Assembly: GCA_016207165.1 (NCBI GenBank)
Contig: JACQQD010000011.1
Location: 32,001-96,000 of the forward strand
DNA length: 64,000 nucleotides
From: Candidatus Micrarchaeota archaeon
GTDB taxonomy: Archaea > Micrarchaeota > Micrarchaeia > Norongarragalinales > Norongarragalinaceae
Direction: 5' to 3'
Both the position numbers and the translations under genes were made by a program. The notes beneath the pieces are model-generated. The model was given only the letters and a program-made list of their open reading frames with translations. It did no database searches and had not been told where the DNA came from. Shown here in pieces: positions 20,598 through 49,261 of this stretch; position 1 is the stretch's first letter, and each line of letters starts with the position of its first letter.

Positions 20598-21722
20598 ATG
20601 AAAAAAGAATTGGACCCGTGGTCCACGCAACTCATTTCGGACTACGACTACTTGTTCAAAGAATTCGGGTTGCAGCACTTCGACGCCAAACTCCAAAAAA
20701 AACTCTCGGGCCACCGCCTTTACCGAAGGGGCATCGTGTTTGCGCACCGGGACTTTGACCAATTCGTGCAAGCCTCGAAAAACAAACAGCCGACGGCCGT
20801 CATGACGGGCATCAAGCCCTCCGGGGAATTCCATTTGGGCTCCAAAATGACGGCCGAAGAAATCATTTTCCTCCAGAAACAGTTCAACAGCCGCTTGTTT
20901 TACGCCATTGCCGACGTGGAAGCCTACGCCGACAACGGGCTGAATTTCCAGCAAAGCCACCAAAACGCGGTGGACAACGTCGCCGACTTGCTGGCCCTGG
21001 GCCTGGACCCCGAAAAGACGTTCGTCTACAAGCAATCCGAGAACATGCACGTCAACAACCTCGCCAACATTTTCGCCCGCAAAACCACGCTCAACACCCT
21101 GGAAGCCTTGTACGGCCACCAGAACCTGGCCCTGTATTTGGCGGTGCTCACGCAAGCCGGCGACATTCTGGCCCCTCAACTGGACGCCTTTGACGGCCCC
21201 AAACATACGGTGGTTCCCGTAGGCATCGACCAAGACCCCCACATCCGCTTCACCCGCGACTTGTCTGCCAAGTTCAAAGACGAATTCGGGTTCATCACGC
21301 CTGCGGCCACCTTCCACAAGTTCTTTCGAGCGTTAAACGGCGAGACGAAGATGTCCAAACGCGACCCCCTGAACATCATGACGCTCAACGACGACAACGT
21401 ACTGCTCAAAAAGAAGTTGGCCAACGCGCTGACCGGCGGACGCGCCACCGCCGAAGAGCAAAGGCGGTTGGGCGCCAACCCGTACGTCTGCGTCGTGTTC
21501 GAGTTGATGAAGTACCACTTCTACGACGACGACTCCGCGCTCAAGGACATGGAACAGGACTGCAAGAGCGGAAAACTGCTTTGCGGCGAGTGCAAGGCCA
21601 TCCGCCTCAAACACATCCAAGAATACTACAAGAAGCACCAGGAAAAAAAGAAAAAAGCGCGCGCCCAAGCCGAACAAATCCTGGAACAACCCATCGCGTT
21701 CAAGAAGAAAAAGTCCAACTAA
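20598..21722 (+). CDS. trpS: Tryptophanyl-tRNA synthetase (archaeal type)
   Basis: HRDF, TGIKPSG.FHLG, VPVGIDQDPH, KMSK, ALTGGR, CGECK. Confidence 0.93.
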   Translation: MKKELDPWSTQLISDYDYLFKEFGLQHFDAKLQKKLSGHRLYRRGIVFAHRDFDQFVQASKNKQPTAVMTGIKPSGEFHLGSKMTAEEIIFLQKQFNSRLFYAIADVEAYADNGLNFQQSHQNAVDNVADLLALGLDPEKTFVYKQSENMHVNNLANIFARKTTLNTLEALYGHQNLALYLAVLTQAGDILAPQLDAFDGPKHTVVPVGIDQDPHIRFTRDLSAKFKDEFGFITPAATFHKFFRALNGETKMSKRDPLNIMTLNDDNVLLKKKLANALTGGRATAEEQRRLGANPYVCVVFELMKYHFYDDDSALKDMEQDCKSGKLLCGECKAIRLKHIQEYYKKHQEKKKKARAQAEQILEQPIAFKKKKSN

Positions 21723-21792
21723 CCCAACGGGGAAGGGGGATCCGGAGGAACGTAGAACTGAGGGGGAAACCGGGGTTTCCCCCGCGGTTTCG

Positions 21793-21840
21793 GCCGAGCA
21801 AATCCTGGAACAACCCATCACGTTCAAGAAGAAAAAATAG
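21793..21840 (+). repeat. Diverged duplicate of the trpS 3' end (AEQILEQPITFKKKK*), separated from the gene by a GC hairpin
   Basis: Matches 21669-21713 with 3 substitutions. Confidence 0.9.
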
Positions 21841-21930
21841 CCACGCGGTTTGTGAGAACAAAGCTTAAAAGCGGAAACCAAGTCAACGTAGAGCCACGTT
21901 TTTTGTGGTGGGGAGTTTCAAGCACCGGAC

Positions 21931-23064
21931 ATGTTTCTCACGTTCCGCAACGCCAAGAAATTGGTGGCGCAACACGACACGCCGTTGATGGTCATCAGCA
22001 AATCACGCGTCCGCGCCAACTACCAGGCCCTCAAAAAAGCCTTGCCTCGCGTGCAAATCCATTACGCCTTGAAAGCCAACCCCCACAAAGGCATTTTGAA
22101 CATTTTGCGCCAAGAAGGCTCCGAGTTTGACGTCGCGTCCTACCAGGAAATCAAGTGGCTCTTGGACATCGGCGTGGATTCCACGAAAATGATTTACGCC
22201 AACCCCATCAAGTCCGTACCCGACTTGGTGCGGGCGTACAACGTCGGCGTGGAAAAATTCGTGTTCGACAACGACACGGAACTCCAGAAGATGGCGCGGT
22301 ACGCCAAAGACGCCGACGTGGTGCTGAGGCTGTTCGTGGACAACAACGCGGCGTACTACAAGTTGTCCGCCAAATACGGGGCGCAGCCCAAGCACGCCAT
22401 CCGGTTGCTGAAAAAAGCCCAGAAACTGGGCCTGAACCCCGTCGGCCTCGCATTTCACGTGGGGTCCCAGAACACGCGGTCGGAAGACTACATCAACGCC
22501 ATCAAGACCTCCGTGAAAATCTACAAGGAAGCCAAGAAAAAAGGCGTCGAACTTGAACTCTTGGACATCGGCGGCGGGTTTCCCGTCCGGTACGGCCACA
22601 AGAAAACCGACAACGGGCACGTGGACGCCAAGCAAATCCTTTCCGACGTCAACGCCGCTTTAGAGGAGAACGTGCCGGAGTCGTTGGAGGTCATCGCCGA
22701 ACCCGGACGCTTCATCATCGGCGACGCCGCGATTCTGATTTCCCGCGTGATCGGCAAATCCAAGCGCAACCGCGTCATTTGGTATTACTTGGACGACGGC
22801 TACTACCACTCCTACACCGACCTTCACGCCTCGAACTGGAAGTACGAATTCGTTCCCCAACGAAAGCAACGCAAACGCCACAAAATCCGCTCCGTGTTGG
22901 CGGGCCCCACGTGCGACTCGTACGACGTCATCGCGAAAAGCATTTGGCTTCCAGAGTTAGAAATCGGGGACCTCATCATGTCGCCCAACATGGGCGCGTA
23001 CAGCACCGCCATTTCCAGCCAGTTCAACGGTTTTCCGCCCGCCAAAACCATCTACGTCGATTAA
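21931..23064 (+). CDS. Ornithine/lysine decarboxylase (fold type III PLP enzyme)
   Basis: YALKAN, FDVAS, YANPIK, KYGA, FHVGSQ, DIGGGF, EPGR, GPTCDS.D, MGAY. Confidence 0.93.
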   Translation: MFLTFRNAKKLVAQHDTPLMVISKSRVRANYQALKKALPRVQIHYALKANPHKGILNILRQEGSEFDVASYQEIKWLLDIGVDSTKMIYANPIKSVPDLVRAYNVGVEKFVFDNDTELQKMARYAKDADVVLRLFVDNNAAYYKLSAKYGAQPKHAIRLLKKAQKLGLNPVGLAFHVGSQNTRSEDYINAIKTSVKIYKEAKKKGVELELLDIGGGFPVRYGHKKTDNGHVDAKQILSDVNAALEENVPESLEVIAEPGRFIIGDAAILISRVIGKSKRNRVIWYYLDDGYYHSYTDLHASNWKYEFVPQRKQRKRHKIRSVLAGPTCDSYDVIAKSIWLPELEIGDLIMSPNMGAYSTAISSQFNGFPPAKTIYVD

Positions 23065-23086
23065 AAACCGAGAAACGCATGGAACC

Positions 23087-24586
23087 GTGATGGCCAACAA
23101 TGCAACGCGCTTCCGCGGGGCGCCGGCACTCAGCAAACAAGACGAATTCCAGCAGGCGTTGCGAAGCCTCATCTCCGAAGATCCCACGCGGGGCAATAAA
23201 GAACTCGTCGACGAATTAAACCGGAGACTGGAAGACTACCTGGCCCAACACTACCAAGGCGGACGCGTGACCCGCGCCGATGTCCGATACGGAAGACGCC
23301 ACGCGCTAAAACAAATTCAGGACGCGCTGTACACCAAAGACCCAAAACAAGACCATTGGTCGCACGAAGAACTGAATCGGCTCACATTTCTGTGGGGACA
23401 ACGGCCTTCGCCCGAGTGGCTTTCCCGCGTACAGCAATTTCACGCCAACAAAGCACTTCATTTGCTGTTCGAACCGCGGCTGCGGACACCCGTCCACTGG
23501 CGCGAAGTGCCCGCCAAACTCCACCAGAAGCGAAGGCAACGGGGCCTTGAAAGCGTGGCGGACTTAAGCGACAACGACATTGTTTCGGCCATACCGGAAA
23601 ACGTGGCATTTCTTCGGCGAGTCAAAGGACTCAAAACAAGCAAGGCCTGCGATTTGATCATTCAACAAGTCGCTGAAATTCCGCGCAACCCAAGCACGAC
23701 AAACTGGAAGGACGCGAAAACAAGGGAAACGTTTGCTCGAAGCCTCATGCACCGCTTTGGCCGCGTGAAAGATATCCCAATCCAAAGCGTTCCCAAAGCA
23801 CTGATCCGGTTCTACGGAACGCAGAAACGCGGAAAATACGTGGGGGCACTGGCCAGACTGCTCTCCGAATTCAACTTAATCACTCCCGAACAGTCCACTC
23901 GATTGACGGCGTACCGGAGCCACAACCGCCGCCGACGCATCCTGCTTCAACACTTAAACCCAAACGCAGGCCAAGCCAAATACCGAGACCTGACCGGCAT
24001 GGCCAAAGGACCCATCAGCAGGACATTCGTCCAAATGGAAAGAGAACTGAGAGCCGCGTTTGCCGAAGTTCAAAAAGGACAAAGAACCCTGGCGGACGTC
24101 GCCAGAGAATTCGGAGTTGGAGCGCGGGGAATCCAGACGCTCTACAAACCATTTGAACAAGACGGTTCCCTAACGCTGTTCTCATACCGCGGAACCGCCA
24201 AACCCGAATTTCGCGAAGACATGAAAACAATGGGCGCGTTGAACAAAGACCTTGAAGAACACTGGCATGCACTGGGCGGCCGAAACCAAAACGGCAGAAG
24301 GCTTGCACCCGGAAGCCAAGTCAGCATGCCCCCTCAAATCAGACGACTGCGAACCCTGCTTCATAAACTCCGAAGAGCCAAAGAACTCAACGCAAGAACG
24401 GTCGGACGGCACGTCGCCGAGGCTCAAAGCATGTGCGAACGCCTAACCGAAAACGGGTCCGCCATCACCATCCGCCAACCGCGAGCCAAACTCGTCACCG
24501 AACGAACCATACCGGGCACCCGCTTTACGAACCTCCACCACACCCTGGAAGCCATCCGCCACGAACACCGGCTTTGGGCCGCGTGA
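23087..24586 (+). CDS. Hypothetical basic protein (499 aa) with a possible HTH
   Basis: Long Arg-rich ORF. TLADVAREFGVGARGIQ resembles an HTH. Confidence 0.7.
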   Translation: MMANNATRFRGAPALSKQDEFQQALRSLISEDPTRGNKELVDELNRRLEDYLAQHYQGGRVTRADVRYGRRHALKQIQDALYTKDPKQDHWSHEELNRLTFLWGQRPSPEWLSRVQQFHANKALHLLFEPRLRTPVHWREVPAKLHQKRRQRGLESVADLSDNDIVSAIPENVAFLRRVKGLKTSKACDLIIQQVAEIPRNPSTTNWKDAKTRETFARSLMHRFGRVKDIPIQSVPKALIRFYGTQKRGKYVGALARLLSEFNLITPEQSTRLTAYRSHNRRRRILLQHLNPNAGQAKYRDLTGMAKGPISRTFVQMERELRAAFAEVQKGQRTLADVAREFGVGARGIQTLYKPFEQDGSLTLFSYRGTAKPEFREDMKTMGALNKDLEEHWHALGGRNQNGRRLAPGSQVSMPPQIRRLRTLLHKLRRAKELNARTVGRHVAEAQSMCERLTENGSAITIRQPRAKLVTERTIPGTRFTNLHHTLEAIRHEHRLWAA

Positions 24587-24629
24587 AAACCGCCGACGAA
24601 ATTAAAAGCCGTGCAACCATACGTGTGCC

Positions 24630-27137
24630 ATGAAGGTCTTCTTGTTTTTCGCGCTCCTTCTTGCAACCGCTTCCGCCGTTGCCGTCGAAAGCGTGCAGGG
24701 GATTGGACCGAAAAACCCCACCCTTTTTGAACCCGTTGAATTCAAGATCCGTTTTTCCGCCAACCTTGGAGATGAAGCACAAGGAACCACGCACAATTAC
24801 TGGCTGATTCTTGAAGACCAAAACCATGAGCGTGCCGTGGTTCGCCCGTACGGCGACTTTAGCTACTACGAGGATTTCACCGGATACAAAACAATCACCC
24901 TCCGCGAATCCCTGAACATCGAACCCAAATACACGGGCAAGCCCCTGAAAGCCGCGATCGCGTGGAGCGTTCAAGACGACACACAAACCCAATCGGGAAA
25001 AGCGTATTGGGGAAACGCCAACGACTTCAAAAACGACGTCATCGTCTTTCAAGCACCGGCTTCCGACCAAGAAACCGTTGGAGGCGTGTTGCTGGATTTC
25101 GTCCGAGAAAAATACGCCCGGAGGGATTTTCAAGCCATTCATGACGCGTTGTTCTTGCGACCCATGGCCAAGTTGGACTCGCACGCGTGCGACATCAACG
25201 CGTACTGGGTCATGAGCCAGGTCGCCATCAAGAAAAACCCGTTTCAAGACGACGAATTCTACGACAACACGCGGCACCCGAAAACGGTTTTTGAAAACTG
25301 GGAGAACTGCCTCGAGGAAACCAAGAATCGGTTCACCCAGACGCTCTCCAGCGCCGTGATCCTGGACAAAAAAGAAAAGGATGAGTACGTGCTGGCGTTG
25401 AACACCCAAACCGGTTTTCCAACGAGCACTACGTTGAACGTCCGCAACTCCAAAAACCAGGAAGTGCGGATTCGCTTGGCGGACGTAGGCGCCCAGCAAG
25501 TCCGGTTGGAGCTTGACGCCAGCGGCGAGTCCCTTCCTTTGAACCAAGACGGCGTGCTGAAAACGGGTTTGACTCCCGAAGAACTTGAACAGCATCCGCT
25601 GAACAACCAAAACCTCGGATTGACGTTTGAACTGAAAGCCGTCAAAGCGCCCCTGGTTCTTCTATCCGTCAAGCGGGCTTCAGGACAACTTGACCGCAAC
25701 GGCAACTGCCGTTTTTTCGCCGGCAAACCAGACGCCGCAATCCACGTGGCCGTGGCCCCCCACGAATACCGAGGCAACCAAGAAAAATTCGAAAAAGACC
25801 TGCAAAAAGCCGTGTGGCTCCTGGAGCAAACCCTTCAAGAACGGTTTGACCAAATCAAGATCAGCGTGCTGGAATCCGAAGTGCCCTGCGTGAAAAAAAA
25901 CCGGCATCTGTTTTGCGACACGTCCTTCGCGCAAGCGGCCTGCAACACGGACTACGTGTACGTCCACGCCAACGAGCAACCCTTCCAAAAAGGCGACAAG
26001 ACATTGTTGCGCGGCATACGGCAAGGCAATCAAGCCAACTGCCCGGCGAACGCCCCCGAATGCTTCCGCCACGAATTGGGCCACCTCTGGTTCGGCCTCT
26101 CCGACCGGTACTGCTGCGACGGCGGCTACTTTCCGCCCACCGTTTACGCCGACGAAGCGAAATGCCGCTCCACCGTGCAAAGATTGTACTCTAAAACATC
26201 TGCCGAACTTCAAAAAAAGTTCACCCGCCACCTGGCCAGCTTCCTGGACAAAGAAACCGCCCCCGACGGAGAGTCCGTCTTGAACCCCTACGGCTTGGAC
26301 GCGACGCTGTTTTCCTTGTCCAGCCAACAACGCGCACCGCTGCTTAAAACCCCACAATGCAAGTCGTTCCAAGACGTCCACGAAAAAAAGCGATTCATTT
26401 TCAGTCAGGACTCCGTCATGAAAAAAAATGCGTACCCCGCGTTTTCCATCGACGAATTGGCCGCCGTGGACCGCGTCTTGAAGGACCCAGAAGGCAAAAA
26501 GACGGGACCAATCCAAGCGGAAAACGCAAAAAGCCTGGAATTCGATGGCCACCGAGCCAAAAAAGTCTTGCACGCGAAACTGGAATTCCACGACAACAAG
26601 CTCGCCATAACGGACGCCATCCTGCAGTACGCCGACGCGCAACCCACCCTCATTTCGCAACCCGGAGGCATCCAAATCGCTTTTTTTGACGCCGACGGCC
26701 AAAGCGTGGTCGTACACGCCATCCCGGATCCCCGGCACGTATTCATTGACGACTTTTCAAAAGAAGAATTGACGGGCGGTTTCTTCGTGGACCCCGACGC
26801 CTCTTTTTCGCTGCGCTTGCCGTTCCCGGAGGAAGCAAAAACCCTGGAGTTTTACGACGAAAGCGGCTTGCTTTTGCGCACGGACGTTGACGGCGTGACG
26901 TCCAATTTCTGTCAAACCAGGACCGTCAAAGAGGATGACTACTGCGAACCGTTGTGCCAAAGCGACGCGGACTGCACAACCGTCAACGCCGTTCCGGCAT
27001 CGGTCGCGCCAACGCCTGCACCGCCTATCCAGCCCGCGTCAACGACGTCCGCCGACGCATTTCCAGTCTACGCCACGGCGTTTCTCGTGGTTCTGGTGCT
27101 AGCCTTCTACGCCGTGTTTTGGAGGAAAACGGCGTGA
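24630..27137 (+). CDS. Secreted, C-terminally anchored zinc metallopeptidase-like protein
   Basis: Signal peptide, HELGHLWFGLSDRY zincin motif, P/T/A linker, C-terminal TM helix and basic tail. Confidence 0.75.
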   Translation: MKVFLFFALLLATASAVAVESVQGIGPKNPTLFEPVEFKIRFSANLGDEAQGTTHNYWLILEDQNHERAVVRPYGDFSYYEDFTGYKTITLRESLNIEPKYTGKPLKAAIAWSVQDDTQTQSGKAYWGNANDFKNDVIVFQAPASDQETVGGVLLDFVREKYARRDFQAIHDALFLRPMAKLDSHACDINAYWVMSQVAIKKNPFQDDEFYDNTRHPKTVFENWENCLEETKNRFTQTLSSAVILDKKEKDEYVLALNTQTGFPTSTTLNVRNSKNQEVRIRLADVGAQQVRLELDASGESLPLNQDGVLKTGLTPEELEQHPLNNQNLGLTFELKAVKAPLVLLSVKRASGQLDRNGNCRFFAGKPDAAIHVAVAPHEYRGNQEKFEKDLQKAVWLLEQTLQERFDQIKISVLESEVPCVKKNRHLFCDTSFAQAACNTDYVYVHANEQPFQKGDKTLLRGIRQGNQANCPANAPECFRHELGHLWFGLSDRYCCDGGYFPPTVYADEAKCRSTVQRLYSKTSAELQKKFTRHLASFLDKETAPDGESVLNPYGLDATLFSLSSQQRAPLLKTPQCKSFQDVHEKKRFIFSQDSVMKKNAYPAFSIDELAAVDRVLKDPEGKKTGPIQAENAKSLEFDGHRAKKVLHAKLEFHDNKLAITDAILQYADAQPTLISQPGGIQIAFFDADGQSVVVHAIPDPRHVFIDDFSKEELTGGFFVDPDASFSLRLPFPEEAKTLEFYDESGLLLRTDVDGVTSNFCQTRTVKEDDYCEPLCQSDADCTTVNAVPASVAPTPAPPIQPASTTSADAFPVYATAFLVVLVLAFYAVFWRKTA

Positions 27138-27814
27138 CGCTCCAATTTCTGTACAACGAAGCCGCCGCCAAGCTTCACGACGCTCTTTTGTTGTCCGACC
27201 TGCATTTGGGCATCGAATACGACCTCCAAGAAAAAGGCTACCACGTGCCCCTCCAATTCAAGGCCGTGGCCGCCCACGTCAACGCGATAATCAAGCAATC
27301 CAGGGCCCGCCAAGTCATCTTTCTTGGAGACGTCAAGCACGACGTGTTCGGTTTGAAGGACAAGGAACACCGCATGCTCAACGCGTTTTTCCGCCGGCTT
27401 AAAACCAAGCGCATCACCGTCTGCAAGGGCAACCACGACTCGGAAATCGAGGCCGTAAAAGGCATCACAGTCGCTGCACCGGAAGGATTTCTTTTCGAAG
27501 ACACGCTCTTGTTTCACGGCCACGCGCAACCCGACCCTGAACTCGTCAAGAAGGCCGACGCGATTTGTTGCGGCCACGAGCACCCCTTGGCGCAAATCCG
27601 GGAAGGACGGCACACGTGGACGGAGAAAGCCTGGATTCTCGGCTTGCAAGGCAAAAAGCGGTTCACCGTGTTCCCGCATTTCGGGCCCTTAGTGGGGGGA
27701 CGCGTGTTTGACCCGGAAAAACACCTCGTGCGCTTTCTGTCCAATGCGTCTTGCCGCAACGCCTCGGCGCACCTGTTAAGCGGAGTCCGCCTGGGCAAAG
27801 TCAGGAACGTATAG
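27134..27814 (+). CDS. Metallophosphoesterase (COG1407/ICC-like)
   Basis: SDLHLG, GDVKH, GNHD, FHGH, GHEHP. GTG start overlaps the upstream stop. Confidence 0.9.
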   Translation: MTLQFLYNEAAAKLHDALLLSDLHLGIEYDLQEKGYHVPLQFKAVAAHVNAIIKQSRARQVIFLGDVKHDVFGLKDKEHRMLNAFFRRLKTKRITVCKGNHDSEIEAVKGITVAAPEGFLFEDTLLFHGHAQPDPELVKKADAICCGHEHPLAQIREGRHTWTEKAWILGLQGKKRFTVFPHFGPLVGGRVFDPEKHLVRFLSNASCRNASAHLLSGVRLGKVRNV

Positions 27815-27818
27815 TCCC

Positions 27819-28583: not shown

Positions 28584-28764
28584 CCATCGAAGGGGATTAA
28601 ACAAGACATGCACCTTGCACGGAAAAAGAGCCAAGCATCCAGATAAACCAGCCGCCAAGCCCCGTGAGAAAGGCTTTTTTAAGTGTTTCCGACAACCATT
28701 CTACCCGTTAGTCAAACCATTCAACCAGTCAATGGAAAGTCTGCAACGTCATAGGTGATTTCAG

Positions 28765-29259: not shown

Positions 29260-29285
29260 AGCGCTAGGGGCACACGCTCTTAGCC

Positions 29286-29358
29286 GGGCCCGTAGTCGAA
29301 TGGCCAAGACGCCACTCTCACACAGTGGAGACTGCCGGTTCGATTCCGGCCGGGCCCA
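29286..29358 (+). tRNA. tRNA-Val(CAC)
   Basis: GGGCCCG/CGGGCCC plus A, anticodon arm CCACT-CT-CAC-AC-AGTGG, TTCGATT T-loop. Confidence 0.95.
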
Positions 29359-29403
29359 CTCCCTCCTTCTTTTAATAGGAGAACTTCGAAGACGACATAC
29401 GGT

Positions 29404-30291: not shown

Positions 30292-30361
30292 GCGAAATCG
30301 TCCCACCGCCTTCCAAAGCAAAGAATTAAAGAATTGGATTCCCGCTACAGTCCTACGTCGT

Positions 30362-31411: not shown

Positions 31412-32269
31412 ATGAAATGGGTTACCGCCACGTTCGTGTTGCTCGCGCTCTTCGGATTGGGTGCGAATGCCCTGTTTCAAAACGTGCCCTGCAGCAAGAC
31501 GTTCGACTCCGGAGACGTGACTCTGGAAATCGGCCAATGCGTCAAAACGCAAAGCGGGTGGACGGTCCGCCTGGAATCCGCGTTTTATGACCCCAGTTCG
31601 GCCGCCTTCAAACTGTTCAACCAAGACGGCGCGGAAGTCACCGATAAAAATTTAGCCATCCAAAGCGAAACCAAAGCGTTGGTCCAGGAAGCCGCCATCG
31701 AGCTTTTCGGCGTCACGAAACCCCAAGGCACCCTCCGGGTTTCCGCCCACATCCAAAGCTGGAATTACCTTCCCGGCGGAGAAAGCCTCCAGGATTACCC
31801 GCAACCCCAGAAATCCATTCCCACCGCCAACCTCAAAAACGAGTTCACCCTGCCGGACGGAAGCCAAGTCATCTTGGACGCGTACAAGAACAACCGAATG
31901 TACTTCTTGATTAAGAAAGCCAATTCCCTCCAATCCACGGATTTAGGAATTGGACAACGCTTCACGGACGGTTTGCTTGAACTCCAGTTCTTCGGCCCCC
32001 GCGAAACCGTGGGCGGCAACACGGGCTACGTCGTGGGACTTTACGCACCGCCGCAAAAAGCCACGGCCACGCCGGAAGCGGCAACCGCCAAACCAACCGG
32101 GCTATCCACGGTCACGCCAAAACCCACCCAATCACCCAGCGCCACGCCCGTAACGCAACCCACGCAGGAAACGCCGACGGCCACGCAAAGCCCACCACCC
32201 CAAAACGGGGGACTGCAAGGGTTAATCGACGCCATCGCCGCATTTTTTAGGAACTTGTTGGGCGGATGA
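31412..32269 (+). CDS. Secreted or surface protein with a P/T-rich linker
   Basis: Signal peptide, TPKPTQSP-type region, amphipathic C-terminus IAAFFRNLLGG. Confidence 0.75.
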   Translation: MKWVTATFVLLALFGLGANALFQNVPCSKTFDSGDVTLEIGQCVKTQSGWTVRLESAFYDPSSAAFKLFNQDGAEVTDKNLAIQSETKALVQEAAIELFGVTKPQGTLRVSAHIQSWNYLPGGESLQDYPQPQKSIPTANLKNEFTLPDGSQVILDAYKNNRMYFLIKKANSLQSTDLGIGQRFTDGLLELQFFGPRETVGGNTGYVVGLYAPPQKATATPEAATAKPTGLSTVTPKPTQSPSATPVTQPTQETPTATQSPPPQNGGLQGLIDAIAAFFRNLLGG

Positions 32270-33785: not shown

Positions 33786-33844
33786 GGCAAGCCAAGGGAA
33801 AGAAAGCCTATAAAACGGGCGGCCCCATTAGAAAAAGTCCTTTC

Positions 33845-33880
33845 GCTCTAGTCGTCTAGACCGGTCAAGGGCACCGTGAC
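33845..33880 (+). repeat. Partial 5' copy 1 of tRNA-Glu, followed by a GC hairpin (33881-33919)
   Basis: First 26 nt identical to 34045-34070, then diverged up to the anticodon stem. Confidence 0.9.
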
Positions 33881-33979
33881 CGGATCCCCGGGGGCGGAGC
33901 GCCTCCCCCTGGAAATCCGTCTTCCTCGCCCCCTCCCGAACGGGTTAAAAAACAAAACTAGCCACAAGACTCTTCTTCT

Positions 33980-33991
33980 GCTCTAGTCGTC
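33980..33991 (+). repeat. Partial 5' copy 2 of tRNA-Glu (12 nt), followed by an AT hairpin (33992-34018)
   Basis: GCTCTAGTCGTC is identical to the tRNA start. Confidence 0.8.
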
Positions 33992-34044
33992 GAACCTTTC
34001 TTTAAGAAAGAAAGCTTCACCAAAGAAACGACAAACGCAGAAAC

Positions 34045-34119
34045 GCTCTAGTCGTCTAGACCGGTCAAGGATACCGGACTCTCAATCCGGCGACCCGGGT
34101 TCAAATCCCGGCTAGAGCA
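34045..34119 (+). tRNA. tRNA-Glu(CTC)
   Basis: GCTCTAG/CTAGAGC plus A, anticodon arm CCGGA-CT-CTC-AA-TCCGG, TTCAAAT T-loop. Confidence 0.95.
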
Positions 34120-34143
34120 CTACAAACGAAGAAGTGAAACCAC

Positions 34144-40744: not shown

Positions 40745-40755
40745 TTTCCCGCATT

Positions 40756-42615
40756 ATGTTTTTCCCTGAACGACTCGTCAAAATCCGCGTGTACTCGCCG
40801 GTCCGCATGCGGGCCGACGTCGTGCAGGCGCTTTACGATTTCGGCGTCATCCACGTCACCCCCACGATACACTTCGCCTCGGACCGACCCTTGGAGCAGT
40901 ACCGGTCCATTTCAGAGAAACTCATCGCCCTCCGGTCGTTGGCCGCCCAAGTACCGTTGCCGCAAGGCAAAGGGCGTCAGCGGGCCATGGCCGACTTGGA
41001 AGCGGATTTTGAGGAATTGGGAATCGAAGAAATTTTTGCCTGGCTCAAAGAGCGCACCGAACTCTCCAACACGTTATCCAACCTCCACTTGGAAGAACAA
41101 AAACTCCGTCCGTTCCGCCATCTTTCCATCAACCCCAAGTGGCTGCACACCCGCCGCCTGAAATTCGCGTACGTTCAGCCCGGCGAAAAATTTCCGTGGG
41201 ACCGCCTCAAAGGCGTGCCGCACGAAACCCAAACGGTTCGCGACGAAAACCTGCAATACGTCCTGGTCGCCTACGACGCCAAACAAGAAGAAAAAGTCCA
41301 ACCCGTCTTGGCGTTGGCCGAAAAGCGCCTCGAGATTCCCGACCCCAACGGCGCGACGTTTCGGCAGGCCTGGGAAAACATCGAAGTGCGCGGCCAGAAC
41401 GCGGAAGTCGCGCTTTCCAGCCTCCAGAAGCGGATCGACTGGTTCTTGAAGCGGAAAGCCAAAGCGTGCGCGGACGTGCTGGCGTGTTTGGAGGTGGAAG
41501 CCAAGAAAGCCGAGCTTCCCACCAAGTTCGGTCAAAGCGTGACGTTGAGCGTGGCGGAAGGATGGATTCCGGAAAAAAAATACGGCGACTTGGAGCGCGC
41601 CCTGGAAAAACAGCTTGGAAACAAAGTGCTCTTGGAATCCGTCAAAACCACGCAAACCCCGCCGACCAAACTGGACAACCCGCGGCCCATCCGGCCGTTC
41701 GAGTTTTTGGTGCAAGCGCTTTCACTGCCCAAGTACAACGAATTGGACCCCACCATTCTGGTATTCTTGAGTTTCCCGTTCTTCTTCGGAATGATTTTAG
41801 GCGACGTGGGTTACGGCTTGGCCATGGTGGCCTTGGCGTTGATTCTCCGCCAGAAATATCCGGAAGGCTTTTTCCGAAGCATTTCCGGCATGATGATTCT
41901 ATCCGGACTTTGGACGATGGTCTTCGGATTCATCTTCGGCGAGTTTTTGGGCGCCGAACGAGTACTGGGATACGAACTCCACCCCCTCATCCACCGCCTC
42001 CAGGCCGAAGGCATCGACGCCCTCATGCAGTTGTCGCTCGTGTTCGGCTTCCTGCATTTGGGCATCGGGTTCGCGCTGGGAACCTACGTGAACCTCCGCG
42101 AACACCACGTCAAGCACGCCATCGCCAAGGCGTCCTGGTTGGTGCTGTTAATGGGCATCCTTGGATTTCTGTCGTTGACGGCGAACATCACGGCTTTAAA
42201 CGTATTCCAATCGTACGGGCAATTTTTTTCCCCGGACATCTGGCTGGGCCTCTCCGGCGTTACGCTGGTCGCGTTGTTGCTAACCGAAGGAGGAAACGCG
42301 TTGCTGGAGATTCCAAGCCTCATTGGCAACCTCGTATCCTACCTGCGTATCATGGCGCTGGGCATCGTCGGCGCCGTCTTGGCGTTGATGGTCAACACCA
42401 TTCCACTGGAGCCCACGCTGGACTTGGGCGGATTGGTTGCATTCGTCCTGTTCACCGTCTTTTTCATCGTGGGCCAGGTCTTCGCCCTGGCCCTGGGCAT
42501 TTTTGAGTCCTCCATCCAGTCCCTGCGTCTGCATTACGTCGAGTTCTTCTCGAAGTTCTACCAAGGCGGCGGCACGGCATTCGTGTCGCTGCGGGAAGGT
42601 TCCGAGCGCAAATAA
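40756..42615 (+). CDS. atpI: A-type ATP synthase subunit I (a)
   Basis: PPTKLDNP, ELDPT, GDVGYG, SYLRIMALG, LRLHYVEFFSKFY. Alternative GTG start at 40741. Confidence 0.95.
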   Translation: MFFPERLVKIRVYSPVRMRADVVQALYDFGVIHVTPTIHFASDRPLEQYRSISEKLIALRSLAAQVPLPQGKGRQRAMADLEADFEELGIEEIFAWLKERTELSNTLSNLHLEEQKLRPFRHLSINPKWLHTRRLKFAYVQPGEKFPWDRLKGVPHETQTVRDENLQYVLVAYDAKQEEKVQPVLALAEKRLEIPDPNGATFRQAWENIEVRGQNAEVALSSLQKRIDWFLKRKAKACADVLACLEVEAKKAELPTKFGQSVTLSVAEGWIPEKKYGDLERALEKQLGNKVLLESVKTTQTPPTKLDNPRPIRPFEFLVQALSLPKYNELDPTILVFLSFPFFFGMILGDVGYGLAMVALALILRQKYPEGFFRSISGMMILSGLWTMVFGFIFGEFLGAERVLGYELHPLIHRLQAEGIDALMQLSLVFGFLHLGIGFALGTYVNLREHHVKHAIAKASWLVLLMGILGFLSLTANITALNVFQSYGQFFSPDIWLGLSGVTLVALLLTEGGNALLEIPSLIGNLVSYLRIMALGIVGAVLALMVNTIPLEPTLDLGGLVAFVLFTVFFIVGQVFALALGIFESSIQSLRLHYVEFFSKFYQGGGTAFVSLREGSERK

Positions 42616-42659
42616 TTTGACGCGTATGAAAGTCATGTTCAAATTGAGGTGAACGAAAT

Positions 42660-42890
42660 ATGGCCATAGATATTGGAACGGGATTGATTGCCGTGGGCGC
42701 AGGTATTGCCGTCCTCGGAGGAGCCTTGGGCACCGCGTACGCACAAGGCAATATTGGTGCGGCCGGCATGGGGCTTTTGGCCGAGCGGGAGAGCGCGTTC
42801 GGAACCGTCATCATCCTGCTGGCCCTGCCGGAAACCATCGTCCTGTTGGGTTTCATCATCGGCTTTCTGCTGTTGGGCAAGATCGCATAA
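42660..42890 (+). CDS. atpK: A-type ATP synthase subunit K (c)
   Basis: Two-helix proteolipid with LPET. Confidence 0.93.
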   Translation: MAIDIGTGLIAVGAGIAVLGGALGTAYAQGNIGAAGMGLLAERESAFGTVIILLALPETIVLLGFIIGFLLLGKIA

Positions 42891-42920
42891 AACCCCGTAA
42901 AAGAAAGAAGGGTTCCGGAT

Positions 42921-43469
42921 ATGAGTCTTGACCAATTGCGGAAGGAAATACGGCATGAGGCTGAAAGCCAGCGAAAGCACGCGTTGGCGGAAGCCAAAAA
43001 GCAAGCCGACGCCATCCTGGCGGAAGCCGAACAGCAAGCCAAGGCCCTGGTGCAAAAAGCCAAAGCCGACGCCGCGTTGGAAGCGGAAGGCAAGCTCACG
43101 CAAGTCTCCGCCGCCCGCTTGAAAGCCAAAAAACGCATTGCGGAAGCCCGCGACCACCTCGTCCAACAGCAATTGCAACAAGCCCGGCAAGCGCTGGCGA
43201 AGTTCGCCGATTCGCCAAAATACGCTGGCGTGCTGAAAAAACTGGCGGACGAAGCCGCCGAAAAAATCGGAAAGAACGCCCAGCTTTTTGCCCGGGAAAA
43301 AGACGTCCCAAAACTCAAGAAAATGGGGTATTCCGCCGAGGAAATGGATTGCCTGGGCGGCTGCGTGGCGGCTACCCCCGACGGGCGCATCCGCGTGAAC
43401 AATACCCTGGAAGCGTTGTTTGAGGAAAACGAGGAGAAACTCCGCCAGAAAATCTTCGAGGAACTCTGA
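42921..43469 (+). CDS. atpE: A-type ATP synthase subunit E
   Basis: Coiled coil plus LGG...DGRIRVNNTLE. Confidence 0.9.
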   Translation: MSLDQLRKEIRHEAESQRKHALAEAKKQADAILAEAEQQAKALVQKAKADAALEAEGKLTQVSAARLKAKKRIAEARDHLVQQQLQQARQALAKFADSPKYAGVLKKLADEAAEKIGKNAQLFAREKDVPKLKKMGYSAEEMDCLGGCVAATPDGRIRVNNTLEALFEENEEKLRQKIFEEL

Positions 43470-44479
43470 TGCCTGACCTCACGTACGCATACGCCAACGC
43501 CCGCATCAAAGCCATGGAAACCAGGCTCTTGACGCCGGAGCAGTACCGCAACCTCTACAACGTCCAAAGCATTCCCGAAATGACGGCCATGCTTCAGGAG
43601 ACGGCGTACCGCGACGCGTTGGTGGAGGCCTCCAAGGAGTTCCAAGGCGTGGAACTGGTCCTGGAAGGGCTCCAAAAAGACTGGTTGGCCACGGTAACCA
43701 AACTGGAGCGCATCCTGCCTGAAAAAGCCAAGAAAGCATTCTCCGTCATGGTCGGCGAATGGGAAGTCCAAGACGTCAAAACCATCATTTCCAAGCGCGC
43801 CCTGGAACAGGAGATTTCCTCGCCGGAGCTGGTCAACGCCACGCCGCAAAGCCGGAAACTCAACGAAAAGCTTTTGGCCGCCAAGACCTGGGAGGACACC
43901 GTCAAGGCATTGCACGGCACGCCGTATTGGGAAAGCGTCAAAGCCGACGAAGCCAGCATCCTCAAAGACAAAGATTACCGCGCCCTCTCCGTGGCCCTTG
44001 ACCGCGCCTACGTTTTGCGCGTCATGGACTTCTCGAAAGTCGCCCAGCGCAAAAGCACGCGCCAACTGCTCACCGAAAAGACGGACTTGGCCAACACCGT
44101 GCTCGTGCTTCGCCTCAAGTCATTTGCCTCCAGCGAACAAATCGAGAAACAACTCGTGGGCCCCGCGTCCCCGCGCGTCAAGCAATTGTTGGACGCCCCA
44201 AGCCTTGACGCCGCCATCGCCCTGCTTGACCTGCCGGACGACGTGCTCCAAGCCTACCAAAAAAAACATACGCTGAGCACCCTGGAAATGGCGTTGGAAA
44301 AAAAATTCGTCGAACGCGTCCTGCGCACCTTCCGCACCAGCGTCTTGAGCTTCGGCGTCGTGCTGGGGTTTTTGTACCTCAAAAGCGCGGAAGTCAACAA
44401 CCTCAAACGCCTGGCCCTCGGCAAGCACTTCGGCGTCGAAGAGGACCTGAAACAGTTTTTGTACGTACTGAGTGGATGA
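43469..44479 (+). CDS. atpC: A-type ATP synthase subunit C
   Basis: YAYANARIKAM...GFLYLKSAEVNNLK. Confidence 0.9.
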   Translation: MPDLTYAYANARIKAMETRLLTPEQYRNLYNVQSIPEMTAMLQETAYRDALVEASKEFQGVELVLEGLQKDWLATVTKLERILPEKAKKAFSVMVGEWEVQDVKTIISKRALEQEISSPELVNATPQSRKLNEKLLAAKTWEDTVKALHGTPYWESVKADEASILKDKDYRALSVALDRAYVLRVMDFSKVAQRKSTRQLLTEKTDLANTVLVLRLKSFASSEQIEKQLVGPASPRVKQLLDAPSLDAAIALLDLPDDVLQAYQKKHTLSTLEMALEKKFVERVLRTFRTSVLSFGVVLGFLYLKSAEVNNLKRLALGKHFGVEEDLKQFLYVLSG

Positions 44480-44480
44480 A

Positions 44481-44795
44481 ATGGATCACATCGCGGTGTT
44501 GGCGGATTCGGAAACGCTTCTAGGCTTTCGGCTCGCCGGCATCCGGCACGCCTTTGTTGCCAACGGCAGGCCCGACGAGGAACTGGATACCGCCATGAAA
44601 ACCCCGGGCATCGGCATCCTCATCGTCAGCCAAGACGTCTTCCAAGACGCCTCGCCCAAACTCCAGAAACACGCCACGGACAGCGCCAAGCCCGTGGTGG
44701 TGGTCATCCCCGGCAAGAAAACCAAGCAGGCCAAAGGCAGTGCGAACCTGGCGGCCATGGTCAAACGCGCCATCGGCGTGGACATCATGAAATGA
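44481..44795 (+). CDS. atpF: A-type ATP synthase subunit F
   Basis: IAVLADSETLLGFRLAGI...VKRAIGVDI. Confidence 0.92.
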   Translation: MDHIAVLADSETLLGFRLAGIRHAFVANGRPDEELDTAMKTPGIGILIVSQDVFQDASPKLQKHATDSAKPVVVVIPGKKTKQAKGSANLAAMVKRAIGVDIMK

Positions 44796-44822
44796 TTCTC
44801 GAATTGAAGGTGAGTGCAGCAT

Positions 44823-46547
44823 ATGGGTAAACTTGCAAAAATCAGCGGGCCCGTCATCGTCGCGGAAGGCATGTCCGGGTCGCAGATGAATGAAGTCGTC
44901 AAAGTCGGCGACCAAGAACTCTTGGGAGAAATCATTTCCCTCAAGTACGACCGCGCCAGCATCCAAGTCTACGAAGACACTTCAGGTTTAAAACCAGGAG
45001 ACGCCGTCGTCGGCACCGGCGCACCGCTTCAAGTCGAACTCGGCCCCGGCCTTCTGAAAGCCGTTTTCGACGGCATCCAGAGACCCTTGGACGTCATCCA
45101 GGAAAAAACAGGCGCCTTCATCCAGCGGGGCGTCAACATTCCGGCGTTGGACATCAAGAAAAAATGGGAGTTTGAAGCCATGGCCAAGAAAGGCGACGCC
45201 GTCGGCCCCGGCGACGTACTGGGAACTGTTCAGGAAACCAACATCACGCACCAAATCCTCGTTCCCCCCATGGTCAAGGCCGGCACGCTTTCGTGGATCA
45301 AGTCCGGCAAATACACCGTCCGCGAAGGCGTCGCCCACATCGGCAAGACCGAAGTCGGACTCTCCCATCTCTGGAGCGTTCGCAAACCCAGGCCCGTCAA
45401 GGAAAAACTCCGCTTTGCCAACCCCCTAGTCACCGGCAAGCGCATCATCGACACGTTTTTCCCCATGGCCAAAGGCGGCGCCGGCGCCATTCCAGGACCC
45501 TTCGGAAGCGGGAAAACGGTAAATCAGCAAGACCTCGCCAAATACAGCGACGCACAAATCATCGTCTACATTGGTTGCGGCGAACGCGGCAACGAAATGA
45601 CGGAAGTGCTCACCGAATTCCCCCAACTGGAAGACCCCAAAACCAAGAAACCCCTCATGGAGCGAACGGTGTTGATTGCCAACACGTCCAACATGCCTGT
45701 AGCGGCCAGAGAAGCCTCCGTCTACACGGGCATCACCCTCGCGGAATACTACCGCGACATGGGCTATTCCGTGGCTTTAATGGCCGACTCGACGTCGCGC
45801 TGGGCGGAAGCCATGCGTGAAATCTCGGGACGCATGGAGGAAATGCCAGGCGAAGAAGGCTATCCTGCGTACTTGGGCCGCAAACTCGCGGAATTCTACG
45901 AACGCGCCGGCAAAGTCCAATGCCTTGGAAGCCCTGACCGCGAAGGCAGCGTCACCGTAGTGGGAGCCGTTTCCCCTGCCGGCGGCGACATCTCCGAACC
46001 CGTCTCCCAAGGCACCCTCCGCATCACGAAAGTATTCTGGGCATTGGACGCCAACTTGTCCCGCCGCCGCCACTACCCCGCCATCAACTGGCTGAAAAGC
46101 TATTCGCTGTACGACGGAGAACTGGAGGACTGGTACGCTCAAAACGTGGCCAAGGAATTCTACCCCTTGCGCGCCAAAGCCATGAACTTACTGCAGAAAG
46201 AAGAGGAACTCCAAAACATCGTGCAACTCATCGGCCCCGACGCCCTCCCGGACAAGGAGCGCTTGGTGCTGGAAGCCACGAAAATGATCCGCGAAGACTT
46301 CTTACAGCAAAATTCCTTTGACCCCGATGATGCGTACACGTCGCCCCAGAAGCAGTACTGGATGATCAAAACCATCCTGCACTACTACGACAAGGCCAAC
46401 GACGCGCTGGCCACAGACGTATCCCTGGAAAAAATCCTTTCCGCCAAAGCCCGCGAAGAAATCTCCAAACTCAAACGCATCCCAGAAAAACAAGTCAAGA
46501 CCACGTGCGAACAAATCCAAAAAGATTTCGAGCACGCATTGCGGTGA
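44823..46547 (+). CDS. atpA: A-type ATP synthase subunit A
   Basis: [29 protein letters not shown]; no intein. Confidence 0.97.
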
Positions 46548-46554
46548 AACCAAA

Positions 46555-46635
46555 ATGATCAAAGAATACCAAACGGATCTTTTCTTTTTTGACAAGAAAG
46601 GAAACATCCATGAAAAGAAAAAACCGCCTAGGTGA
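46555..46635 (+). repeat. Recoded duplicate of the atpB start (MIKEYQT) fused to an AT hairpin; 26-aa ORF
   Basis: ATGATCAAAGAATACCAAACG versus ATGATTAAGGAATACCAGACC at 46641. Confidence 0.85.
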
Positions 46636-46640
46636 ATCAC

Positions 46641-48032
46641 ATGATTAAGGAATACCAGACCGTCAAGGAAATCTTCGGACCCATCGTCTTCGTCGAAGAC
46701 ATCCAGGACGCGGCCTACAACGAGACCGTCGACATCATCATGCCCAGCGGCGAAAAACTCAAGGGCCAAGTGCTGGAATCAAGCCGAGGCCTGGCCGCCG
46801 TGCAAGTCTTCGGCGCCACCACGGGGCTGGACACCAAAACCACGCGCATCCGCTTCTCCGGCGAAACCCTCCAGTTGCCAGTGTCCGACGACATGCTTGG
46901 CCGCGTCTTTGACGGCACCGGACAACCCATCGACAAAGGCGCTCCCGTCGTATCCAAGGAAAAACGCGACATCAACGGGTTCGCCATCAACCCCTACGCC
47001 CGAGCCAGCCCCCACGACTTCATCCAAACCGGCGTGTCCACCATCGACGCCCTGAACACCCTCGTTCGCGGCCAGAAGCTACCCATCTTCTCCACCGCCG
47101 GCCTGCCCCACAACGAACTCGCCGTACAAATCGCTAGACAGGCCACCGTCCGAGGAAAAGACGAAGACTTCGTCGTCGTGTTCGCGGCCATGGGCATCAC
47201 CAACGCCGAAGCGCAGTTCTTCATGAAGGACTTCGAAAAAACCGGAGCCCTGGAAAGAGCCGTGCTGTTCTTGAATTTAGCCAACGACCCCTCCATCGAA
47301 CGCCTCATTACCCCAAGAATGGCGCTGACGACCGCCGAGTACCTCGCCTACGAAAAAGACATGCAAGTGCTCGTCGTCATGACGGACATGACCAACTACT
47401 GCGACGCGCTTCGCGAAATCGCGGCCGCCCGCCAAGAAGTGCCCGGACGCCGAGGATACCCCGGATACATGTACACCGACTTGGCCTCTATTTACGAGCG
47501 CGCCGGCACCATCAAGGGCCGCAAAGGCACCGTCACCCAACTGCCGATTCTGACCATGCCGGAAGAAGACATCACGCACCCCATCCCCGACTTGACGGGT
47601 TACATCACCGAAGGCCAAATCGTATTGAGCCGAGAACTTCACCGCAAAACCATTTACCCCAACGTCGACGTATTGCCGTCGTTGTCGCGGTTGATGAACG
47701 CCGGCATCGGTTCCAACAGAACCCGCGAAGACCACGCCGGCGTTTCTTCCCAGCTTTACGCCTCGTACGCGCAAGGCCGCGACCTCAGGCAATTGGTGGC
47801 CGTGGTCGGCGAAGAAGCCTTGAGCGCCAAAGACAAGAAATTCCTGAAATTCGCCGACCAATTCGAGAAGCGCTTCGTCCAGCAAGGCCGCCACGAAAAC
47901 CGGTCCATCGAGCAATCCCTGGATTTGGGGTGGGAGTTGTTGTCGGAAATCCCCGAAGACGAACTCAAACGCGTCAAAACGGAACACCTCGAAAAATACG
48001 GGCGGAAATTCCGCGCCGGAGGCAAGAAATGA
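46641..48032 (+). CDS. atpB: A-type ATP synthase subunit B
   Basis: [44 protein letters not shown]. Confidence 0.97.
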
Positions 48033-48343
48033 ATTTGACGCTGGAAATGCAGAAAGCGCTCTCCGAAACGCACTTGGACGAATACGGCTACACCGCCGCC
48101 CAAGTGCTCTACGACTTGGAAAAGCTTTCCGACCGCGAAACCCACGTCGACGGCTCCAACGCCAACGACGCACTCCATGCGTCGCGTTGCCTGCGGCGCA
48201 TGGCCGCCGACCCCAGAACAGCGGCCCGCTTTGCCGAACTCTTGTCCAAAGCGTTCACGGACGACGACGAACCCCACGCCAAAACCTGGGTCGTCCTGGA
48301 AGCCGCCCGCCGCTTCGAAGGCCAAGGAAAAAAAGGACTCTGA
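48029..48343 (+). CDS. Hypothetical protein (104 aa) inside the ATPase operon
   Basis: ATGA overlap with the atpB stop; host-like codon usage. Confidence 0.6.
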
Positions 48344-48459
48344 AAAAAAACACCAAACCAGAAGACAAAAAGAAAAAAAACCAAAAAAAAATCAAGAAAA
48401 GTAGAAGAATTAATCAAATGGGAAAAAACGAAATTCAGGACGGAAAATAGTGGAACGTA

Positions 48460-48585
48460 ATGGCTAAAGAAAACGTCAAACCGACTAGAATGGAACTTCT
48501 CAACACGGTCGCCCCAGGGGGAAGCGTCCCCCTTGGCCCGCCCTGGGCCTCGACCCCCTCAAACGGAGTGAAAAGTCATGGCTAA
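48460..48585 (+). repeat. Recoded duplicate of the first 16 atpD codons fused to a GC hairpin; 41-aa ORF
   Basis: 48460-48507 versus 48578-48625: same peptide MAKENVKPTRMELLNT with only synonymous differences. Confidence 0.9.
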
Positions 48586-49261
48586 AGAAAACGTCAAGCC
48601 CACCCGCATGGAACTTCTCAACACGAAAGGCAAGCTCAAGCTCGCCGAAAAAGGCCACAAGCTCCTCAAACAGAAGCGCGACGCCCTGGTATTGGAGTTC
48701 TTCCAAGTCATCAAGAAAGCCAAAGACTTACGAACCCTTGTCGACGAACAACTCATCGCCGCCTACCGGGCCTTGGCCGTAGCCGAAGCCATGCACTCCA
48801 GGCTTTTCTTGGAGACGGCGGCGGTGGCCGCCCACGAAGCACCCAGCATTTCCGTGTCCCAGCAGAACATTATGGGCGTGCGCATCCCCAAAATCCAGGG
48901 CCAAGCCATCCAACGCAACATTTTGGAGCGCGGCTACAGCCTGCAAGGAAGTTCCGCTGGATTTGACGAAGCCGTGGACGCCTTCGAGAAATCCGTGGCC
49001 ATGATCATCCAACTCGCGGAAACGGAGTCCGCGCTCAAAAAACTGTTGACGGAAATCGAGAAAACCAACCGCCGGGTCAACGCATTGGAGTACAACATCC
49101 AACCCTCCATGAAAGCCACCATGAAGGAAATCCAAGGACACCTCAACCGCTTGGAAGCCGAGTTGTTCTTTTCCCTGAAAGTCACCAAACGAAGACTGGA
49201 ACGCAAGGCGGAAGCCGAAGAAGAAAAAGGCAGAGCCGCCGACAAAGCCCAAACCGGCTAA
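48578..49261 (+). CDS. atpD: A-type ATP synthase subunit D
   Basis: PTRMELL, GHKLLKQKRDAL, EIEKTNRRVNALE. Confidence 0.96.
   Translation: MAKENVKPTRMELLNTKGKLKLAEKGHKLLKQKRDALVLEFFQVIKKAKDLRTLVDEQLIAAYRALAVAEAMHSRLFLETAAVAAHEAPSISVSQQNIMGVRIPKIQGQAIQRNILERGYSLQGSSAGFDEAVDAFEKSVAMIIQLAETESALKKLLTEIEKTNRRVNALEYNIQPSMKATMKEIQGHLNRLEAELFFSLKVTKRRLERKAEAEEEKGRAADKAQTG

Follow-up and report, generated by a model that had tools for sequence, protein, structure and literature searches.

The 64,000-nt stretch analyzed here, termed the window, covers positions 32001 to 96000 of contig JACQQD010000011.1 (C11) in the assembly of a Candidatus Micrarchaeota archaeon (GCA_016207165.1; G000). It contains five sites at which a short hairpin-bearing insert lies between two copies of one end of a gene. 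The genome amounts to 1.27 Mb in 12 contigs with 56% G+C, and is an estimated ~90% complete. An earlier note, made from the letters of the window alone, had located the five sites at the end of a tRNA synthetase gene, the start of a tRNA-Glu gene (twice) and the starts of atpB and atpD, and direct inspection of the sequence finds all of them in place. Protein genes were called with a simple home-made codon-usage caller and tRNAs with ARAGORN, and gene identities in the window were checked with Pfam, which assigns the synthetase at the 21669 site to the class I Trp/Tyr type and confirms subunits A, B and D of an A/V-type ATPase. The genomes used for comparison were chiefly two of the same genus (G001 and G002) and one from another genus of the family (G009).

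At the synthetase site, the working 3' end of the gene (21669..21722, plus strand) encodes a protein ending in ...KKKKSN and terminates with the stop codon at 21720-21722. It is followed by an element of the kind that we call GC-type (21723..21792, minus strand; covariance-model match C11:53729-53796), which is antisense to the gene, and then by an orphan copy of the 3' end (21793..21840, plus strand; ...KKKK, stop TAG). The C-rich tail of the element points to the gene, making the working end the tail-side repeat copy, and the hairpin base adjoins the orphan. The repeats, 21669-21712 and 21793-21836, are 44 nt long, 95% identical and spaced by 124 nt. Both endings are natural variants, with the orphan ending as in G001 and the working copy nearly as in G002.

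The remaining four sites lie wholly on the plus strand. Two of them are stacked at tRNA-Glu, where an orphan of the first 33 nt of the tRNA (33844..33876), attributed to an older event, is followed by a GC-type element with its hairpin and C-rich tail (33877..33936) and a 43-nt spacer with an A/T-rich box. A second orphan, of the first 12 nt and attributed to a younger event (33980..33991), then precedes an AT-rich hairpin and spacer, present as a single copy in G000 (33992..34044), and the intact tRNA-Glu(CTC) gene (34045..34120). At atpB, a 20-nt orphan start (MIKEYQT; 46555..46574) lies 7 nt past the atpA stop codon and is separated from the working start (46641..46660) by a 66-nt AT-rich insert (46575..46640), which consists of a hairpin (46575-46609) and a spacer carrying a GGTGA motif resembling a Shine-Dalgarno (SD) sequence. 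The two starts differ in three codons, all synonymously. The atpA gene itself (window 46500-46557) ends ~16 codons sooner than in G001 and G002 (...FEHALR, then stop), and the atpB event may also have reshaped this C terminus.

At atpD, the orphan (48449..48507) and working (48567..48625; ATG at 48578) starts each comprise the SD region and 16 codons, forming 59-nt repeats with 86% identity. Four codons differ and all four are synonymous, including an exchange of AGA for CGC. The orphan opens a short upstream frame that stops just within the real gene. The GC-type element between them (48508..48561, 54 nt) is letter-for-letter identical to a second copy at G000:C10:5609-5662.

Two near-identical gene ends in a 12-contig assembly from a metagenome look like two alleles, and could in principle reflect the joining of strain variants of the same gene end, the artefact that the earlier note had itself raised. 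We therefore compared the window with Logan contigs, which are unitig-like products of an independent assembler, from four DNA runs of one study. Both atpD junctions, from orphan to element and from element to intact gene, are reproduced in these contigs, which in two samples of that study also span the atpB site with no differences; the arrangement is thus not an assembly artefact. Moreover, the intervening element belongs to a family that is conserved and structured, numbers 97 copies across four genomes and recurs on a separate metagenome contig, with the same architecture in each of the three other genomes, and its polarity and junction rule, described below, hold throughout. We consider strain collapse scarcely credible.

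The architecture extends across the genome. A k-mer scan of all of G000 revealed 33 pairs of near-tandem direct repeats, 12 of which enclose related GC-rich hairpins. When 22 copies are aligned, an inner helix of 7 bp emerges, with pairing in 96.7% of cells and compensatory changes; it sits inside an outer stem that varies among subfamilies, and a C-rich tail comes after. From this alignment a covariance model was built, which detects 23 copies in G000, 31 in G001, 21 in G002 and 21 in G009; together with one further G000 copy identified by nhmmer, these make up the 97 copies examined below. Among 151 sampled genomes of the phylum, just five are matched by the model, so the GC-type sequence family is narrow. 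The GC-type inserts are thus described as small (~55–75 nt), non-coding, non-autonomous elements with a conserved G5/C5 hairpin inside a variable outer stem and a C-rich tail. An Rfam search matched two tRNAs and nothing else, leaving the element without an Rfam family, and a literature search, with subscription journals and supplements outside its scope, returned no account of hairpin elements bracketed by duplicated, recoded gene ends.

In being small, non-coding, hairpin-forming, multi-copy and located at gene boundaries, the element resembles repetitive extragenic palindromes (REP, BIME and REPIN sequences) and MITEs (miniature inverted-repeat transposable elements). It lacks the inverted repeats that define the ends of such elements: the hairpin occupies the 5' part and the C-rich tail the 3' part, and one subfamily alone pairs 4 nt of its two ends. 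Nor does G000 contain a match to RAYT, the Y1 HUH transposase associated with REP sequences (PF01797), and the flanking repeats, which vary widely in length and would be partly foreign, differ from those of MITEs. Copies of small RNA genes described as MITE-like, for the C/D box sRNAs of Pyrobaculum, differ from the present elements (PMC6009581).

The tail tends to form a parallel complement of the purine arm of the hairpin, with C opposite G and T opposite A, as in the arm GGGAGG and tail CCCTCC. When scored with a crude stem finder, for which 88 of the 97 copies could be used, the mean best mirror match between arm and tail is 0.772, compared with 0.715±0.01 for permuted pairs (0 of 2000 permutations as high) and 0.704 for a reversed control. 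A hairpin with one purine and one pyrimidine arm and a mirroring pyrimidine third strand is the signature of an intrastrand triplex, which is accordingly predicted here from sequence. A close precedent is the TMECO/ITxF group of bacterial triplex motifs (Holder et al. 2015, PMC4666352), which are likewise short G/C-rich hairpins with a pyrimidine third strand on one DNA strand, are multi-copy, have no transposase or integrase nearby and are linked to local genome variability. As described there, the TMECO motifs are always intergenic and show no strand bias, and that paper nowhere uses the word 'duplication', whereas the present copies are bracketed by long duplicated gene ends and strictly oriented toward the gene.

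Direct repeats flank most copies. Under a rule requiring a local alignment score of at least 34, with the first repeat copy ending at the start of the model, repeats of 19–111 nt ending at the hairpin base were found for 73 of the 97 copies (18 of 24 in G000), whereas only 4 of 1000 random 64-nt windows of G000 pass. The pattern of duplicated termini with an intervening hairpin, which the earlier note had seen at five sites and proposed to seek elsewhere, is therefore genome-wide. With every element read in the hairpin-to-tail direction, the end of the first repeat copy invariably coincides with the hairpin base, and the second copy begins past the tail or past a short, variable extension of it. 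The repeats, many of which have diverged, do not amount to a short target-site duplication of fixed length. Quantised repeat lengths, as might arise from histone wrapping, were also considered and dropped, as no such pattern is visible.

The repeats have a marked polarity with respect to genes. At 50 loci the gene or tRNA body is found on the tail side only, at 5 on both sides and at 3 on the hairpin side only, two of these last being mirror views of inverted element pairs; at the remaining 15, no body was called on either side. The 55 tail-side ends comprise 14 protein-gene 5' ends, 2 tRNA 5' ends, 27 protein-gene 3' ends and 12 tRNA 3' ends. Because the gene or tRNA body sits on the tail side, the tail-adjacent copy is the working one and the hairpin-adjacent copy is the orphan. 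Random insertion would not give this polarity. The targets are not specifically essential genes, as had been suggested from the five sites in the window. Inverted pairs, in which two elements lie within one repeat pair, occur at L049 (G001:C17:38763-38897) and L064 (G002:C29:17458-17593). One G000 copy, at G000:C9:100018-100081, lacks a flanking repeat. The gene upstream of it takes its stop codon (TAA) from the initial bases of the outer stem, and no other clear example was seen in which a working gene adjoins the hairpin side. A different complexity is found at L065 (G002:C30:19961-20022), where a 60-nt perfect repeat spans the element tail, its extension and a tRNA 3' end, suggesting either that an occupied site was hit a second time or that a tandem duplication arose locally.

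The differences between repeat copies are of the type expected between coding sequences. Across 41 protein-coding loci and 602 compared codons, 162 codons differ, 122 of them synonymously and 40 non-synonymously, and the nucleotide differences at codon positions 1, 2 and 3 number 37, 23 and 136. Random single changes are expected to be synonymous in 21.5% of cases, compared with the 75% observed. Neutral decay of a target duplication was rejected as an explanation, since an orphan decaying in place would gather mainly non-synonymous changes and, by our estimate, leave ~35–45% synonymous differences, and a binomial test against 45% gives p of about 4e-15. Between copies there are also switches between the TCN and AGY families of Ser codons, which point mutation does not cross silently. 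Since the differences are mainly synonymous, the spare copy, too, evolved as coding sequence, in agreement with what the earlier note had proposed from the window. Translational bypass or in-frame read-through of the insert was rejected as well, since neither the copy spacing at atpD (118 nt) nor that at the small open reading frame (ORF) of a split anaerobic ribonucleotide reductase, nrdD (152 nt), is divisible by three.

The differences are not evenly spread along the repeat. Counted in fifths from the tail-proximal end they number 79, 64, 40, 37 and 27, so that they cluster at the extreme end of the gene, near the tail, and the part next to the gene body is near-identical. At 3' ends, the two copies usually finish with the same residues, and the stop codon differs in 11 of 18 loci of equal C-terminal length. 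In 15 of 27 loci the stop codon in use falls between -5 and +2 nt relative to the repeat start, and the final bases of the tail often provide it. Where the end is a 5' one, an SD of the GGTG(A) type and, at one locus, a new start codon come from the spacer past the tail. These features support the proposal that the intact copy is a replacement terminus and the other a displaced one, and bear out the suggestion that the insert supplies a terminus with its own SD, with a stop codon as the counterpart at 3' ends.

A comparable exchange of gene ends is known from Escherichia coli, where prophage e14 and phage 21 integrate in the 3' end of icd and bring a replacement terminus with them. The likeness is considerable: the replacement differs mainly synonymously, the native end is left past the insert, and a block of identity lies beside the gene body. 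The present insert is, however, only 55–110 nt long and has no genes and no integrase, unlike e14, and it occurs at dozens of unrelated gene and tRNA ends, both 5' and 3', with a variable junction in place of one fixed core per target. The same geometry, running from gene body through identical block, imported recoded terminus and element to displaced native terminus, would arise if mini-circles consisting of an element and a copy of a gene end were integrated site-specifically by a tyrosine recombinase, much as integron cassettes are inserted, with the structurally conserved hairpin as an att- or attC-like site; three genes of the Phage_integrase family do occur in the genome. We regard this route as very unlikely, because the dozens of unrelated targets share no common core, the junction differs at the same gene between lineages, the circles would measure just ~90–190 bp, and no recombinase gene is found in the window or beside the elements examined. 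Cargo-filled versions, for which the earlier note had proposed a search, were not seen either: when the 76 nt upstream of each of the six repeat-less G000 copies were compared with the whole genome, the sole matches were tRNA paralogues, so none of the six has a distant second flank copy.

Comparison with relatives reveals single-copy empty sites, which the earlier note had proposed to look for. The atpD site is empty in G001 and G002, and the atpB site in G001, G002 and G004. At C9:97914, a young insertion with identical repeats (38/38), the site is empty in G001 and G002, and the native ending of G001 (Gln CAG, stop TGA) is that of the orphan, whereas the working copy has CAA and TAG.

Relatives also show repeated occupation of the same gene end at different points. 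At atpD, the junction falls after 48 nt in G000, 27 nt in G009 and 24 nt in a metagenome contig (L135). The last of these was among four loci returned by a metagenome scan with AtpD; it carries an independent insertion with an element of another subfamily, and none of the four is near enough to name the donor of the G000 replacement start. The atpB start is occupied in G000 and G009 at different codons. In the UPF0147 gene, which is occupied in both G000 and G001 with junctions ~4 nt apart, a Ser codon reads TCT in the G000 orphan and the G001 working copy; AGC is found instead in the working copy of G000, in the orphan of G001 and in every outgroup shown. In an extraction that was one base out of codon register, the distal 45 nt show identities of 0.78 crosswise between the genomes compared with 0.67–0.69 within each genome, whereas the proximal 33 nt show 0.85 within each genome. 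Because the sites are few and the register is offset, we take this comparison as suggestive of a swap of the two terminus versions between G000 and G001.

Neither the junctions nor the ends of the elements support a site-specific system. No target consensus was found at the hairpin junction beyond a mild C/G excess at the last repeat base, which is what becomes of the hairpin 'beginning CG(G)' described from the window; that description does not hold generally. Element copies carry short pieces of earlier flanks past both ends. Two copies have as their extension a motif that at another locus comes after the stop codon, the atpD element matches the UPF0147 copy down to three bases that act as a stop codon at the latter, and several copies at tRNA ends carry a few T-loop bases ahead of the hairpin. 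Orphan tRNA 3' ends often have a 1–2-nt T-loop insertion beside the hairpin, for example TTTCAGAAC compared with TTTGAAC (G000:C8:8772-8801, G000:C8:23511-23542, L037, L063 and L073), which may be flank carried from an earlier tRNA target or may reflect inactivation of the fragment. The carried flanks, the lack of a target consensus, and the stop codons and SDs provided by tail and spacer are signs of copy-and-join rather than cut-and-paste.

Searches of the ~90% complete G000 for RVT_1, Y1_Tnp, Cas1, the TnpB Zn-ribbon, DDE_Tnp_1 and rve gave no match to any of the six families, leaving the element, for the families covered, without the cognate transposase on which a MITE depends. G001 has one DDE_Tnp_1 and one rve match, and G002 has neither. 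As the earlier note had stated, the window contains no integrase or transposase; all three matches to tyrosine recombinases in the genome are on other contigs. The integration system that it had proposed, of the attC, integron or REP type, is not supported. The lack of a target consensus, the variation of the junction at the same gene and the spread of repeat lengths oppose it, as do the carried earlier flanks and the six empty searches, and elements at dozens of different gene and tRNA ends do not fit the common attI-type site of an integron.

We favor, with a probability of roughly 0.5, a reading in which the element is a non-autonomous hairpin or triplex that spreads when DNA recombines homologously on the side of the gene and illegitimately at the hairpin base, so that a foreign terminus comes in and the native one is orphaned. 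Having no enzyme of its own, it would depend on host recombination or template switching. Element-bearing DNA beside a gene end would pair with a recipient gene on the tail side, through real homology where the gene is the same and through a generic stop-codon or SD-ATG motif where it is new. The other side would be joined illegitimately at the hairpin base, at a variable point 19–111 nt inside the recipient gene. The recipient would thereby keep a working, chimeric gene made up of its native proximal part and an imported extreme terminus (a stop codon, or an SD and start), and its own terminus would be left as an orphan past the hairpin. Repeated events would stack orphans, as at tRNA-Glu with its 33-nt and 12-nt fragments. 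Such a process would account for the chimeric end and the native orphan, for junctions that vary, for differences graded along the repeat, and for the polarity and the carried flanks. The recombination route, the direction of transfer (orphan native, distal part of the working copy foreign) and a part for the hairpin or triplex in the break or switch are what we infer; that a triplex creates the breaks or switches is conjecture.

Homology-facilitated illegitimate recombination is known in bacteria (PMC3240628) and has reportedly been invoked for stacked orphan effector genes (PMC5361080). In the T6SS (type VI secretion system) effector-immunity arrays of Vibrio cholerae treated there, an incoming allele recombines in a conserved part and the resident end is pushed downstream as an orphan, and such orphans stack (PMC5361080). 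Those modules are, however, kilobase-sized protein-coding cargo under strong selection, whereas here the insert is a short hairpin and the swapped ends encode the same protein. The difference in cargo applies equally to the orphan modules of Rhs and contact-dependent growth inhibition (CDI) systems, in which displaced tips are left as orphans comparable to the stacked ones described here.

Several observations weigh against recombination of this kind. Gene bodies were assigned with the home-made caller, and 15 repeat-bearing loci are uncalled on both sides. The four genomes are relatives of one another and a few loci (4 clusters) are orthologs, which keeps the counts from being fully independent. 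The crosswise likeness at UPF0147 rests on 45 nt, with 35 matches compared with 28–32, one base off the codon register. No transfer event, donor lineage or same-population empty-site allele was seen in the genomes and contigs compared, and among the Logan contig joints listed there is no form that skips the element and one repeat, although such contigs drop rare variants. How the element first arrives at a new gene end, perhaps via stop-codon or SD-ATG microhomology, is conjecture. The three tyrosine recombinase genes lie within the same genome, if on other contigs, and a search of six enzyme families leaves room for an unknown or host-supplied enzyme. Finally, at ~10 loci the repeats are 100% identical (e.g. 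43/43, 38/38, 41/41 and 49/49). Staggered-cut duplication explains these equally well, and as they differ only at the last codon and stop, homologous exchange would have to rely on microhomology or on later import.

The identical repeats are also an argument for transposition by an unidentified trans-acting enzyme making long and variable staggered cuts. The repeats would then be target-site duplications, with synonymous differences introduced later by allelic recombination with other strains. The sharp 5' border of the element at the hairpin base, the single-copy empty sites in relatives and the occurrence of identical element sequences at two loci of G000 are in line with this. We nevertheless judge it unlikely. 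We know of no transposase that gives duplications spread over 19–111 nt, and the strict polarity toward the gene body (50 vs 3) is unexpected from random insertion. Bases of earlier flanks travel with the element at both ends, repeats that are otherwise identical already have a different yet equivalent last codon and stop, and the six enzyme families are without match in G000.

The AT-rich inserts at tRNA-Glu and atpB are a separate matter. They had been grouped as one 'AT type' of hairpin, a class that did not survive comparison: the two inserts are not significantly alike (74 of 500 shuffles reach their score), and BLAST of both against G000 returned no further copy, so they are not established as one type. 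A likeness was found instead to a tRNA intron. The tRNA-Ser(CGA) gene of the window (2292-2495, minus strand) contains a 118-nt intron (2339-2456) with three hairpins. The atpB insert resembles the first of these (score 34 compared with 14.2±2.2 for shuffles; 0 of 500), and what remains of the intron is similar to the element that G009 has at its atpB start (42 compared with 14.8±2.1; 0 of 500). In addition, 2 of the 97 GC-type copies lie inside intron-bearing tRNA calls. On the strength of these resemblances, the gene-end inserts and the tRNA intron modules are probably related pools.

The same resemblances could point to an RNA-level process, in which relatives of archaeal tRNA introns re-enter DNA through an RNA intermediate such as an excised or circular intron RNA. 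Archaeal bulge-helix-bulge tRNA introns are indeed among the nearest known systems, in that hairpin modules are shared between the atpB-type inserts and a tRNA-Ser intron, and the GC-type copies within tRNA introns add to the likeness. The gene-end copies are nevertheless outside RNA genes and are flanked by duplicated gene ends, and no reverse transcriptase match was found in G000. Carried flank bases and imported gene termini are DNA-level features, and an RNA route has in our view only a slim chance of being correct.

Taken further, recombination at the gene side could define an enzyme-free 'homing hairpin' as a new class of selfish DNA: a ~55-nt triplex-forming element that uses the neighboring gene end as a homing arm, swaps termini between lineages by one-sided homologous recombination, and whose modules also seed archaeal tRNA introns. 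This extension is speculative and we hold it to be doubtful. If it were correct, it would provide a DNA-level route for archaeal intron gain, and the link to tRNA intron modules bears in any case on how such introns arise and move. If termini are exchanged as favored here, reduced genomes would trade the ends of housekeeping genes across lineages with a tiny structured element riding along, and selfish DNA would spread needing neither transposase nor integrase. Each orphan would then be a fossil of the native allele, recording a past DNA transfer in organisms that are not yet genetically tractable. For annotation, upstream reading frames arise from orphan starts, and orphan ends look like pseudogenes and tRNA fragments. 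New here are the polarity count, the codon statistics with their control, the gradient along the repeat, the recurrent occupation with different junctions, the possibly swapped versions and the recombination model.

One further locus illustrates how an element can bear on the start of a gene. In G000 (L020; G000:C12:61187-63600), the anaerobic ribonucleotide reductase is encoded by two ORFs, a large one and a small one with the glycyl-radical motif, and it is split likewise in G001 and G002. The source of the spacer that carries the SD and ATG of the small ORF was not found in G000 or in the other loci retrieved. Two identical 41-nt repeats enclose the G000 element, which is located within the beginning of the small ORF and whose spacer supplies a new SD and ATG, resulting in a shorter N terminus.

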